Positions 9,060 through 60,445 are shown, counted from the stretch's first letter. The stretch: DNA of 64,000 bases from an uncultured Veillonella sp. (GCF_900545795.1 NZ_URAR01000003.1:2490-66489), one strand, 5' to 3'. The notes: generated by a model from the letters alone, not told the origin. A program made the numbers and translations.

Positions 9060-9240
9060 AGTTAGCGCCTTACTGATTTTATAGCTAGCATCTTAAATGC
9101 TTAATATTTAGTGCCTTAGATGTTTTTAATGCCTTAGTTGCATTTTAGTACTTTAGATTCATTTTAATACCTTAGCTGCTTTACATTTAGTTCTTACATG
9201 CTTTTATATTTAGACACTTAGGTGCTTTTATATTATGTAG
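9060..9240. repeat. degenerate AT-rich tandem repeat array (about 21-bp period, TTAG-containing units)
   Basis: Units such as ttagatgtttttaatgcc / ttagttgcattttagtac / tttagattcattttaatacc / ttagctgctttacatttag recur about 8 times, directly 5' of the SPOUT gene start. Confidence 0.6.
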
Positions 9241-9321
9241 TTTACTATTACAAAATGCTAGTAAAGTACTAAGAACAGTTTCTATTATACTCCATCTTTA
9301 GGAAAGTGGAAAATATGGCCC

Positions 9322-9392
9322 AAATAAAATGCTTAGATGCTAACTCCTTAAGGCCTTGTATCAGCCTTGTAGAATTGCATCTAAGCATTATT
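9322..9392 (-). terminator. terminator of the glycolytic operon (after eno)
   Basis: 12-bp perfect inverted repeat ATGCTTAGATGC (9329-9340) / GCATCTAAGCAT (9377-9388) enclosing an inner hairpin AAGGC...GCCTT. Followed on the minus strand by UUUUAUUUGG. Confidence 0.55.
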
Positions 9393-9443
9393 ATGTGATG
9401 TAAACTTTTAACTATAGATACATCTAAGTGATGAATCTATATA

Positions 9444-10733
9444 TTATTTATGTTTTAAATTGTAGAATACATCAAGACCACGATATTGAGCTGTTTCAGC
9501 TAATAAGTCTTCGATGCGAAGTAATTGATTGTATTTAGCTACGCGTTCGCTACGAGCTGGTGCACCAGTTTTAATTTGGCCCGCATTCACTGCTACGGCA
9601 ATGTCAGCGATAGTGTTATCTTCTGTTTCGCCAGAACGGTGAGAAATAACACAAGTATAGCCTGCGCGTTTAGCCATTTCAATAGCATCAAAAGTTTCTG
9701 TTAAAGTACCGATTTGGTTTACTTTAATTAAGATAGAGTTTGCTGTATCAGCTTGAATACCTCGAGCCAAACGTTCTGTGTTTGTTACAAATAAATCGTC
9801 ACCTACTAATTGAACTTTTTTGCCAAGGCGCTCTGTTAATAATTTCCAGCCTTCCCAATCTTCTTCAGCTAAACCATCTTCAATAGAGATGATAGGATAT
9901 TTTTCTACTAGTGCTTCATAGAAATCAACCATTTCAGCGGCAGTTTTAACTTTGCCTTCACCAGCTAAATTATATTTTCCATCTTTAAAGAATTCAGAAG
10001 ACGCCGCATCAATAGCTAATTTGAAATCAGTGCCAGGTTCATAACCAGCATCTTTAATCGCTTCACAAATAACTTGTAATGCTTCTTCATTGGAGCCAAG
10101 ATTTGGTGCAAAACCACCTTCATCGCCCACACCAGTAGCAAGACCTTTAGCTTTTAATACATTTTTAAGTGTGTGATATACTTCTGCACAAGCGCGTAAT
10201 GCTTCTTTGAAGGACTCTGCACCTACTGGCATAATCATGAACTCTTGAATGTCCACATTATTGTCAGCATGAGCACCACCATTTAAAATGTTCATCATTG
10301 GCACTGGTAATTCTTTACCATTTGTACCACCTAAGTATTGGAATAATGGTAAATCATAAGAAGCAGCTGCCGCTTGAGCTACTGCCATAGATACGCCAAG
10401 AATCGCATTGGCACCAAATTTACCTTTATTAGGAGTACCATCAAGCTCAATCATTAATTTATCAATAGCTACTTGTTCTGATGCATCAAAACCAAGAATA
10501 GCAGGACCAATTAATTCATTTACATTATGAACAGCTTGTTCTACGCCTTTACCTAAGTAGCGACCTTTATCGCCATCGCGAAGCTCTACTGCTTCAAATT
10601 GACCAGTGGACGCGCCAGATGGAACAGCAGCACGACCAATTGTGCCGTCTTCTAAATACACTTCTACTTCCACTGTTGGATTGCCACGGGAATCTAGGAT
10701 CTCTCTTGCGTAAACATCTGTAATAATTGCCAT
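9444..10733 (-). CDS. eno: enolase (phosphopyruvate hydratase)
   Basis: 429 aa. [25 protein letters not shown]..., a strong enolase signature. GGAGG RBS. Confidence 0.95.
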
Positions 10734-10801
10734 AATATGACCTCCTTAATATGTTAACCTCAATACGTTAACCCTTATATACTTTCATTATACCCTACCT
10801 A

Positions 10802-10839
10802 GGTAGAACCTGCCTTTATTACAGGGAACAAGTTCTACC
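10802..10839 (-). other. intercistronic stem-loop between gpmI and eno, overlapping the gpmI stop
   Basis: 8-bp stem GGTAGAAC/GTTCTACC with an inner CCTG/CAGG stem. No U-tract, so more likely a processing or stability element than a terminator. Confidence 0.35.
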
Positions 10840-57835: not shown

Positions 57836-57898
57836 GGTAAAATCCCCCTTATGGTAAATGATTAATATACATTCCTAGTATCGTCTAGCACTACAGTC

Positions 57899-59335
57899 TT
57901 ACTTATTTTTATGTGCCGCTAATTTAGGGCCTAATAATTTCTTATATACTTCTACGCCAGGTTGATTAAAAGCATCTACATTGGCCAATTGACCTTCATA
58001 GAAAATAGCCCAACATTGCATAAACATAAATGCACCTAAGAAGAACGCATTTAAAGTTGGCAGTTCAATAGTTAAATTGAAGCGCTTATCCCCTGTTAAA
58101 GCCTCACTATTAGCCTCTAAAGCAGTGTTCATAATAGTCGCTAAATCAAGACCACTAAATGCTTCTAAAGTTGGAATATCAGCATATGTATGAGGCACCA
58201 CTAATTCAGTTTCCCAATCAGCTACTTTCACAAATGTAACTACTTTGTTTAAGCGGCCTTCTTGATGTTCCTGAGTTTGTGCATGCATATCAGTAGTTCC
58301 TACAGCAACTACTGGAGTGCGGCCATAGCGACCAGATTTGTCAGCCTTTTCCTTGCCTAAAGATTCAGCTAATAATTGCACATACCATTCAGCCAAGGAT
58401 TTTAAAGAGTCGCCATAAGGCATCATAACTTCAATGGTACGACCATATTTTTCAGATGCAATATATTTTAGAATGGCACTTAATAATGCTGGATTTTGTA
58501 ACATATTACCACTCTTACAAGCTTGGTCAATTTCCTTGGCACCATCTAAGAATGAACGAATATCAAAGCCAATTACAGCACCGATGATAAGGCCTACTTC
58601 AGTAAATACAGAGAAGCGACCACCTACGCCATCAGGTACAGCAAAAATTGGCCAGTTTTGAGATACGGCAAGCTTATGTAATAAGGTTTCTTTTTCATCA
58701 TCTCGTGGATCTGTTACAGCAATAACTTCTACGCCAATGCCAGCTTGCAACATAGCCTCTTGAACCACCATAAAATTAGACATTGGTTCAATAGTCGAGC
58801 CAGATTTAGAAATGACAATAAGCATTACTTTAAAATCGCTCTCCTTGCGAGCGGCGCTATCTTTTAACGCATCAATTAATTCTTTAGTACGTTTAGAATC
58901 AGCATTATTGCCACTAAAATATAATTGTGGATATCCATTGCGTTGCTCTGCTGTTTTTTGATTCCAAAACTCGCCGCAATGCACATCAAATAAAACTTTA
59001 CCACCTAAATAGGATCCACCAATACCAAAGCTTACTACAGCATCTATAGATTCTTTAGCATGAGCGCCTAAAGCTTCTAAGCGTTTTAAAACGGCTTCAG
59101 AATTTAAATGATCATCTTCAACGTAAGGAAGTTCAGGAAACAATACTTTCTCTGGAGTGCCATCCTTTGACAAATGACCATCTACTACACCATTAAAACG
59201 CACCTTCGCTGCCGCTTTTACAGCATTAGCAACATTATCAAATTCATTGCGCATATCTTCATCAGTTACAGCCCACTCATTTAATACGTTAGTATAATCA
59301 AACGTAAAACCGGAAGGCAATACAATCTTACTCAT
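57899..59335 (-). CDS. pgi: glucose-6-phosphate isomerase
   Basis: PGI signature SKSGSTIEP. Start trimmed to ATG 59335 (MSKIVLPSG..., AAGGAGG RBS). Confidence 0.9.
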   Translation of the reverse strand: MSKIVLPSGFTFDYTNVLNEWAVTDEDMRNEFDNVANAVKAAAKVRFNGVVDGHLSKDGTPEKVLFPELPYVEDDHLNSEAVLKRLEALGAHAKESIDAVVSFGIGGSYLGGKVLFDVHCGEFWNQKTAEQRNGYPQLYFSGNNADSKRTKELIDALKDSAARKESDFKVMLIVISKSGSTIEPMSNFMVVQEAMLQAGIGVEVIAVTDPRDDEKETLLHKLAVSQNWPIFAVPDGVGGRFSVFTEVGLIIGAVIGFDIRSFLDGAKEIDQACKSGNMLQNPALLSAILKYIASEKYGRTIEVMMPYGDSLKSLAEWYVQLLAESLGKEKADKSGRYGRTPVVAVGTTDMHAQTQEHQEGRLNKVVTFVKVADWETELVVPHTYADIPTLEAFSGLDLATIMNTALEANSEALTGDKRFNLTIELPTLNAFFLGAFMFMQCWAIFYEGQLANVDAFNQPGVEVYKKLLGPKLAAHKNK

Positions 59336-59562
59336 AAAGAGCCTCCTTATATCCAATAATTCAATAAATAATTATTACCTGCTAGTTGCTTTACAAACCT
59401 AACAGTGGTAATACATCATTTTAGTTTTAATAATATATTGATTCATTCAATATGTATTCGTACATACTATTGTACCCTTACAGCATATACCATGCAATAG
59501 GTAGTATATGGTTTTCTATGCATTCTACACATTCATCATACATGCATGCCCTGAACAATAGA

Positions 59563-60282
59563 TTAAACTCGAGTTGTGCCGGCTTTAGCTAATTGATCAG
59601 CCCGTTCATTATAGGTAACCCCTGTATGAGCAGCTACTTTATGAAAATGAACTGCCATATTCGCCAAATACGCTTTAACAAATTTAGCATAATATTGAGT
59701 TAATGGATTATTTGTTTTCCATCGCCCTAAGGCCCACATTTCAATCCCCATGTAATCATAATAGAGATGAACAACCTTAGCACCACAGCGCTTTGCTTCT
59801 TTTAGAACATGCATCGAGCCTAGTAATTCACCAGACACATTCCAATAGTTTGTATAAAATGGATCTTTCGTACCGAAAGAGAATTCCCAACTCTCATCAT
59901 TATAAAAAATGATACCACCAGAGCCTACAGCGCCATTGTGCTTATCAAAGCTTCCATCAATATACGCTACCATAGCTTCAGCACTAGCGTCTTGAGGTGC
60001 TATATTCTCTTTTTTAGTAGACCTATTACGTTCTGCCTTATTTACATATGACGAGGTATGACCTGTACTACTCTCCTCCACAGGAAGAACGCCTAATTCA
60101 ATAGCATCCGCTAAACTATAGGACTTTTCTTGAGGCTGTAAAAACTCTTGTGCCTGCACCATAGTTGGAAATGATTTATATATTGCGCCACTATAGCCTT
60201 TTACTTGTGCCTCGCAATCAGCCCAAGTTTCATATATACCAGGCTTACGACCTTGTTGCACTGCATAATATTTTTTTGCCAT
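59563..60282 (-). CDS. rnhA: ribonuclease HI with N-terminal hybrid-binding (caulimovirus viroplasmin-like) domain
   Basis: N-terminal KKYYAVQQGRKPGIYETWADCEAQVKGYSGAIYKSF HBD, then an RNase H fold with the DEDD pattern (YIDGS..., ..E.W..., ...HTG...NERAD). Confidence 0.8.
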   Translation of the reverse strand: MAKKYYAVQQGRKPGIYETWADCEAQVKGYSGAIYKSFPTMVQAQEFLQPQEKSYSLADAIELGVLPVEESSTGHTSSYVNKAERNRSTKKENIAPQDASAEAMVAYIDGSFDKHNGAVGSGGIIFYNDESWEFSFGTKDPFYTNYWNVSGELLGSMHVLKEAKRCGAKVVHLYYDYMGIEMWALGRWKTNNPLTQYYAKFVKAYLANMAVHFHKVAAHTGVTYNERADQLAKAGTTRV

Positions 60283-60344
60283 AAAACACCTTTTACAGAT
60301 TATTCATATACTAATGTAAATTAGTCATCACTAACAGCTGTTTA

Positions 60345-60445
60345 CCAGTAATGCTACCATTAGATTACTCGCAATACTACCGCTAGATTATTCACAATAT
60401 TAACACAATAGATTACGTGTATTACCAACAGTCAATTACCTACAG
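60345..60445. repeat. degenerate approximately 23-bp tandem repeats (TAGATTA/ATTAC motifs)
   Basis: taccattagattactcgcaatac / taccgctagattattcacaatat / taacacaatagattacgtgtat / taccaacagtcaattacctac, upstream of rnhA. Confidence 0.5.

Follow-up and report, generated by a model that had tools for sequence, protein, structure and literature searches.

In a 64,000-nucleotide stretch of DNA from an uncultured Veillonella sp. (GCF_900545795.1, NZ_URAR01000003.1:2490-66489; the whole stretch is referred to here as the window), about a quarter of the gene-to-gene spacers contain a short tandem-repeat array whose unit is peculiar to its locus. We favour, with some reservation, the view that these arrays are degenerate minisatellites, produced locally through slippage and tandem duplication in steps of about 22 bp, and that they are tolerated where they lie rather than serving as promoter elements. 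Tandem Repeats Finder (TRF) was run over the window, and arrays were counted if they had a score of at least 50 and a period of at least 10 and lay in intergenic regions of at least 60 bp. Arrays are present in 9 of the 35 intergenic regions, compared to 0.32 +/- 0.56 (maximum 3) in 200 dinucleotide-preserving shuffles. Local autocorrelation, used as a separate test, is significant (p<=0.005) in all eight intergenic arrays that had been listed in an initial annotation of this DNA, while about 21 other spacers give no signal. Including one array in a coding region, that annotation had claimed tandem repeats at nine places; TRF recovers all nine, the genes named alongside them (SPOUT, gpmI-eno, cggR, PepSY, ywlE, nth, mraZ and rnhA) are correctly identified, and two further arrays come to light at 48148-48189 and 56537-56627. 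Per kb, intergenic DNA holds 1.10 arrays and coding DNA 0.054, a 20-fold difference. The arrays comprise 2-7 head-to-tail units with 65-85% mutual identity; as direct repeats whose unit is specific to the locus and at least 10 bp long, they have the basic layout of variable-number tandem repeats (VNTRs) or minisatellites. They are given below, with sequences read on the gene strand; here and throughout, promoter-like and terminator-like sites are consensus matches only.

9060-9240: TRF 9114-9234, period 19/24, about seven degenerate copies of the CTAAG..CTAAA type; between a promoter-like site (-10 at 9284) and the start of the SPOUT methyltransferase gene (9037), reaching nearly to the start codon.
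12517-12608: TRF 12530-12593, period 16/32 bp; in the tpi-gpmI intercistronic spacer of the glycolytic operon.
17215-17339: TRF 17221-17339, about five units of 24 bp; in the spacer between an M20 amidohydrolase gene and cggR.
20602-20740: TRF 20602-20706, about five units, period 23/24 bp; between the upp terminator and the PepSY promoter with its operator-like palindrome.
24262-24415: TRF 24330-24389, period 11/22 bp; fills the Sua5-ywlE spacer, beginning a few nucleotides past the Sua5 stop.
31775-31895: TRF 31791-31883, about five to six units of 20 bp with a 10-bp sub-period; between a divergent DUF896-like small open reading frame (ORF) and the nth promoter.
48148-48189: a two-copy 21-bp duplication in the 76-bp mraZ-rsmH spacer.
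48941-49135: TRF 48941-49118, composite blocks of 13/26, 22 and 6 bp; between a divergent thrE-like gene and mraZ.
60345-60445: TRF 60350-60416, about three to four units of 23 bp; fills the spacer between a YbaK-like tRNA-editing gene and the RNase HI gene.
25603-25815, minus strand: coding array, TRF 25602-25802, period 18/36/54; encodes DNQxxx hexapeptide repeats at the N-terminus of Sua5/TsaC.
56537-56627, minus strand: coding array with a period of 27 bp, encoding 9-aa repeats (xSxPSASMxN type).

The origin and fate of these arrays can be followed in relatives. The CggR protein of the window is 97% and 93% identical to its counterparts in two Veillonella metagenome-assembled genomes (MAGs), 81% identical to those of V. 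ratti, V. seminalis and V. intestinalis, and only 55-56% identical to those of the classical species from mouth and gut (V. parvula-like strains, V. rodentium and V. denticariosi). The window comes from a Veillonella that falls within the V. ratti/seminalis-like clade. Contigs nearly identical to it are found in several metagenomes of the gut, among them a 74-kb contig from the Joint Genome Institute (JGI). The same pipeline was run on syntenic loci, with the clade represented by the window and the non-redundant loci L007-L016. The closest other species, L007, shares about 85% nucleotide identity with the window in genes.

The units derive from sequence immediately beside them, which provides direct evidence that arrays are born from adjacent unique sequence, frequently from the last codons of a gene together with its stop. 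When the array at 17339-17215 is read in units of 24 bp, its first unit proves to be the end of the M20 gene, GGTATTATTGCTTAA (G I I A stop, the stop being TAA), plus the nine bases that follow, and the later units are copies of this first one. In V. ratti and two relatives, the 27-bp array between tpi and gpmI consists of the last four tpi codons and the stop, three times over. Four of the five arrays in L007 are duplications across the stops of prmC, Sua5, ywlE and upp, the fifth beginning 13 nt past a stop, and L013 carries an independent 15-bp duplication across the upp stop. Indeed, 11 of the 24 co-directional arrays of the clade overlap the upstream stop or begin within 14 nt of it (5.1 expected under the null, P=0.004). 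No such excess exists at the downstream start, which only 3 of the 24 abut, against 5.1 expected. Thus, across the clade, arrays cluster at the stop codon of the upstream gene and not at promoters. The enrichment is explained by the compactness of the spacers: when about 22 bp are duplicated across the stop, both the gene and the downstream ribosome-binding site are spared, whereas at most other positions a duplication would disrupt something.

The abundance of arrays is confined to one lineage. The clade has 28 arrays in 30.7 kb of spacer (about 0.9 per kb), while only 2 were counted in about 39 kb (about 0.05 per kb) of V. parvula-like and V. rodentium loci, which match the clade in GC content (0.39) and gene order. 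Control loci from Megasphaera, a Sporomusaceae MAG and about 60 other metagenome loci with upp homologues have roughly 0.1 arrays per kb over about 124 kb of spacer. Near-perfect duplications, with no more than one mismatch, are likewise about 4-fold commoner in the clade. Within the clade, the arrays are not conserved. Between M20 and cggR, promoter, leader and start region hardly differ from the window to L007, yet the array region cannot be aligned and L007 has a 22-bp array of its own; the cggR promoter and leader are almost invariant over three species. The same contrast is seen in the upp-PepSY spacer, where the operator-like palindrome and the promoter are kept and the arrays are not, and in the eno-SPOUT spacer. 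Since arrays are unalignable while the adjoining regulatory DNA is kept, they are not under sequence constraint. Arrays also inflate spacers: that between tpi and gpmI measures 13 bp in V. parvula-like loci (L019 14069-14081) and about 43 bp in L007 but 305 bp in the window (12389-12693), and five other clade species each have an array of their own there, with periods of 17, 23-26 and 27 bp.

Change in copy number by whole units is observed in one array, the coding array of Sua5/TsaC. The N-terminal extension of this protein, a disordered segment of about 70 aa of DNQxxx repeats, is missing from the V. parvula-like orthologues (343 aa), so arrays can lengthen proteins. Among strains that are 99.8-99.9% identical (the window, L024, L025 and L030), Sua5 lengths of 464, 452 and 446 aa occur, and the length changes by whole units between identical neighbouring units. 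An apparent excess of single-nucleotide polymorphisms (SNPs) in arrays was rejected as a misalignment of this copy-number variant. In each of the two strongest coding arrays the period (18 and 27 bp, respectively) is a multiple of 3, and both arrays encode low-complexity protein segments; the second is a low-complexity or disordered linker of a 292-aa membrane-anchored protein (55939-56817, minus strand) that has no Pfam hit. In the tpi spacer, all units of the V. ratti array have been homogenised (100% identity), and the orthologous arrays of two related species consist of three diverged units (81-86%). Arrays can also coincide with contig ends: several metagenome contigs and assemblies end inside the Sua5 array.

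From these patterns we infer a mechanism of slippage and tandem duplication, the neutrality of its products and a cause for their 22-bp step. A segment of about 19-24 bp would be duplicated in tandem and in place, either by replication slippage or by microhomology-mediated tandem duplication. It would then grow to 2-7 copies through further slippage or unequal exchange and finally decay by point mutation. Selection would merely filter which arrays survive: those in spacer DNA free of promoter, operator, terminator and ribosome-binding site, those across an upstream stop codon whose first copy keeps the gene intact, and those within disordered protein segments whose units are multiples of 3 bp. 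The abundance of arrays and their step of about 22 bp would be a property of the sublineage, most likely a mutational bias peculiar to this lineage, perhaps alongside weaker selection on spacer compactness. Given birth from adjacent sequence and location at tolerated sites, the default reading of such arrays shifts from a regulatory or architectural element to a tolerated product of size-biased duplication.

The initial annotation had emphasized that each array lies in the 5' region of a minus-strand gene. However, nearly all genes are co-directional, so that every spacer lies upstream of some gene and the statement is uninformative; relative to promoter-like and terminator-like sites, the placements are heterogeneous. 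The array at 17339-17221 is in a 3' untranslated region: it begins in the last M20 codons and ends ahead of a terminator hairpin (17159-17131), which is followed by the cggR promoter. That at 20740-20602 occupies a terminator-promoter gap, and that at 9240-9060 probably sits in a 5' leader, to judge from the promoter-like site before it. Three arrays fill or lie in spacers within operons (12608-12517, 24415-24262 and 60445-60345), and two are in divergent regions (31895-31775 and 49135-48941). There is no single relation between array and promoter across these placements, nor a fixed position just upstream of a -35 hexamer. It is therefore very improbable that the arrays raise transcription of the minus-strand genes downstream of them as curved DNA or UP-like elements, the idea to which the annotation had leaned. 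Two arrays, 20740-20602 and 31895-31775, do lie directly upstream of -35-like hexamers, and the array at 24262-24415 is predicted to be bent, but the excess of arrays is at upstream stops instead of promoters and most arrays are not predicted to be bent. Curvature was computed with a wedge model at helical repeats of 10.5, 11 and 11.5 bp and compared with composition-matched shuffles; phased A-tracts, included as a positive control, gave the expected result. At 10.5 bp only the array at 24262-24415 bends more than its shuffles (1 of 8), joined at helical repeats of at least 11 bp by that at 17215-17339 (2 of 8); the other six are predicted straight or straighter than shuffles. Predicted bending in the window peaks near 17119, at about 31 degrees per turn, in a phased T-tract block that adjoins the 17215-17339 array but lies outside it. 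This block, within 17075-17160, spans the terminator tail and the -35 region of cggR, and it is conserved whereas the array is not. Phased A-tracts and UP elements thus share with the Veillonella arrays their AT-richness, the location of some upstream of promoters and one bent array with an 11-bp sub-period, but differ in that most of the arrays are unbent by prediction and keep no fixed distance to a promoter.

A dispersed mobile or interspersed family, of the kind of mycobacterial interspersed repetitive units (MIRUs), miniature inverted-repeat transposable elements (MITEs) or repetitive extragenic palindromic (REP) elements, or else a CRISPR-like array, is hardly credible. MIRUs form one dispersed mycobacterial family with a consensus of 46-101 bp, occurring as intercistronic tandem repeats that overlap the flanking stop and start codons, and the intercistronic position and stop-codon overlap of the Veillonella arrays do recall them. 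In contrast, each Veillonella array has its own unit, copied from the adjacent gene end. BLAST comparison of the arrays with each other and with the window gave only short, weak matches (E>0.001), revealing neither a family nor copies elsewhere in the window; together with the k-mer counts, this bears out the earlier claim that units differ between loci and do not represent a single mobile family. A shared TTAG/CTA content, also claimed, is weak: TAG and CTA are 1.7-fold enriched, but no k-mer is common to the arrays beyond what composition gives, and CTAAG, TAAAG and TAG are enriched merely by amplification within single arrays. The annotation had rightly set aside CRISPR arrays, as units are contiguous and without spacers, and REP or BOX hairpins, since RNA folding of eight arrays gives z-scores of -2.2 to +0.7, with no structure significantly above shuffles. 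No cas gene was found among the 20 window ORFs scanned, mostly those flanking arrays, the remaining window proteins not having been searched. Iterons were also considered and rejected, given the many chromosomal loci and their differing units; no rep gene is present among the 20 window proteins scanned, although adjacency to a rep gene was not searched systematically.

It is also possible that the arrays act at the RNA level and tune mRNA stability or translational coupling, either as purine-rich spacers without structure or by binding, or acting as a sponge for, an RNase or RNA-binding protein. Most arrays do lie within probable transcripts (before terminators, in operons or in a leader), they are anchored at stop codons, and on the sense strand they are rich in A and G (A 39%, T 30%, G 21%, C 10%) and fold weakly; moreover, a hairpin with a T-run follows the array upstream of mraZ. 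However, two arrays occupy a terminator-promoter gap or the space separating divergent promoters, and there is no common motif, no conservation between species and no Rfam match in a scan of the whole window, arrays included. We thus regard a role in RNA as improbable.

The units are clustered in size. Of the 15 intergenic arrays of the window and L007, 12 have a unit in the range of 19-24 bp (binomial p=7e-7 versus a uniform 10-40 bp range), compared to 2 of 13 in other clade species (Fisher p=0.002) and 4 of 13 in control loci (Fisher p=0.02), where units are mostly of 12-14 bp. Since TRF detection is set by total aligned length and not by period, the clustering of sizes is real. Clade-wide, periods extend from 11 to 28 bp without the troughs at 15-16 or 26 bp to be expected from strict helical phasing. 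The periods near 20-24 bp reported earlier therefore hold for the window and its closest relative, not for the clade as a whole, and strict helical phasing is unsupported.

Several points weigh against tolerated minisatellites. Simple slippage does not predict so narrow a size and should favour shorter steps, as in the controls; a mechanistic ruler or selection on size is needed for the clustering. The same 20-23 nt size recurs in unrelated phyla, where it has been read as functional constraint (Subirana and Messeguer, PMC8161180). The tpi-gpmI, M20-cggR and upp-PepSY spacers carry different units in different species, as selection for having some array at these places would likewise predict. 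Microhomology arms are not recognisable at the ends of the degenerate arrays. Finally, no copy-number variation of intergenic arrays is found among 16 same-species contigs, but these are near-clonal (about 1 SNP per kb), so that their invariance says little.

One could envisage that a nucleoid-associated or other protein polymerises on two-turn repeats of about 22 bp (underwound DNA) and reads spacing or shape, so that length is kept but sequence is free to drift, as Subirana and Messeguer hypothesised and, in part, the initial annotation did too. It fits the tight range of 19-24 bp in the window and L007, the 10-11 bp sub-periods in two arrays, the arrays with unrelated units in orthologous spacers and the existence of a comparable class of constant size and variable sequence in several phyla (PMC8161180). 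On the other hand, the arrays have no sequence signal in common, unlike the published class with its short signals that recur throughout a species, and clade periods are spread over 11-28 bp. Six of the eight arrays are predicted straight, their composition is that of ordinary spacers, many have only two or three copies, and many are plain duplications of gene 3' ends. Sister Veillonella of equal GC content and gene order manage without them. Size-selected structural arrays are, in light of this, rather unlikely. Somewhat more broadly, we see a modest chance that the length of about 22 bp is itself selected or mechanistically fixed, perhaps by such a sequence-blind protein on two-turn repeats, or by a ruler of about 22 nt in the replisome or in Okazaki-fragment maturation. 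If so, the array-bearing and array-free sister clades would offer a natural paired system for explaining repeats of this kind.

The Veillonella arrays resemble, and would join, a known and still unexplained kind of repeat of constant size and variable sequence. Subirana and Messeguer described non-coding, species-specific repeats of 20-23 nt that are numerous in some Bacillus and Paenibacillus and occur in cyanobacteria and actinobacteria as well, and suggested that they bind nucleoid proteins or give rise to small RNAs, 20-21 nt corresponding to two helical turns (Int J Mol Sci 2021, PMC8161180). The likeness lies in a unit of about 20-23 nt (in the window and L007), a sequence that varies between loci, a non-coding location and restriction to certain taxa. 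The published class was, however, detected by at least four repeats with an exact decamer, and by this rule no intergenic array of the window passes, only the Sua5 coding array (25618-25775). Such an exact-decamer (SATFIND-like) criterion is too strict for degenerate arrays, so the published per-Mb baselines are not directly comparable. The published class also includes families of related arrays and a species-wide short signal (e.g. TCGCGG), neither of which occurs among the Veillonella arrays; these are shorter (2-7 copies), only 65-85% identical and spread over 11-28 bp in the clade. Neither Negativicutes nor Veillonella is among the taxa named in the parts of PMC8161180 that we draw on; the words 'stop codon', 'intergenic' and 'terminator' do not occur in its text, and stop anchoring is not discussed. 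Our literature search on intergenic repeats in Veillonella returned nothing. The present arrays thus add a new taxon for 20-23 nt repeats, a gut Veillonella sublineage whose sister Veillonella of equal synteny and GC content are almost free of arrays.

With the VNTR minisatellites of multiple-locus VNTR analysis (MLVA), the Veillonella arrays share a head-to-tail unit of 10-100 bp that is specific to its locus, a location in spacers or low-complexity coding segments and, for the Sua5 array, copy-number change by whole units through slippage. They differ in being unusually dense (about 1 per kb of spacer), restricted to one lineage, mostly degenerate and invariant among near-clonal strains. A possible route to their birth is provided by Wei et al. 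(2026), who propose that microhomology-mediated tandem duplication, tied to Okazaki-fragment maturation, starts most tandem repeats (bioRxiv 10.64898/2026.02.28.708716). As in that model, a single-copy segment is duplicated and then expanded, and both two-copy and multi-copy stages exist among the Veillonella arrays, but the step of about 22 bp lies outside the model and the arms are unrecognisable in the decayed arrays. Three unrelated control metagenome loci also have well-preserved arrays: L099 has seven copies of 20 bp with 96% identity (5360-5500), L087 has 3.8 copies of 47 bp (16823-16995) and L056 has 4.5 copies of 73 bp (509-835). The 20-bp array of L099 could represent, in a different taxon, the published class of 20-23 nt repeats.

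Several features beside the arrays deserve mention. A 32-bp perfect palindrome (ATCGATATATCTAATAAAATAGATATATCGAT) at 20518-20549, between the promoter-like site and the start of PepSY, looks like a putative operator; most of its sequence is kept in L007, the surrounding spacer is not. On the minus strand at 48862-48885, a hairpin with a T-run stands between the composite array and the mraZ promoter, and it could end a short array-containing transcript or read-through from further upstream. Divergent from nth, a 72-aa ORF with a good ribosome-binding site (31986-32204, plus strand) is DUF896/YnzC-like by eye and shares a bidirectional terminator (about 32220-32262) with an aminotransferase gene. 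A 525-aa protein encoded beside nth (29460-31037, minus strand) has no Pfam hit, and at the same position other Veillonella encode counterparts of 479-481 aa, likewise without Pfam hits. A tRNA scan of the 64-kb window found no tRNA gene. Weak periodicities below the TRF threshold, possibly decayed arrays, are present at 14646-14868 (lag 21, p=0.03) and 18430-18653 (lag 12, p=0.015). Finally, the plus strand shows a strong and uniform negative GC skew over the whole window (1-64000; about -0.1 to -0.2) and nearly all genes are on the minus strand; the entire window therefore belongs to one replichore, its genes running in the direction of replication.

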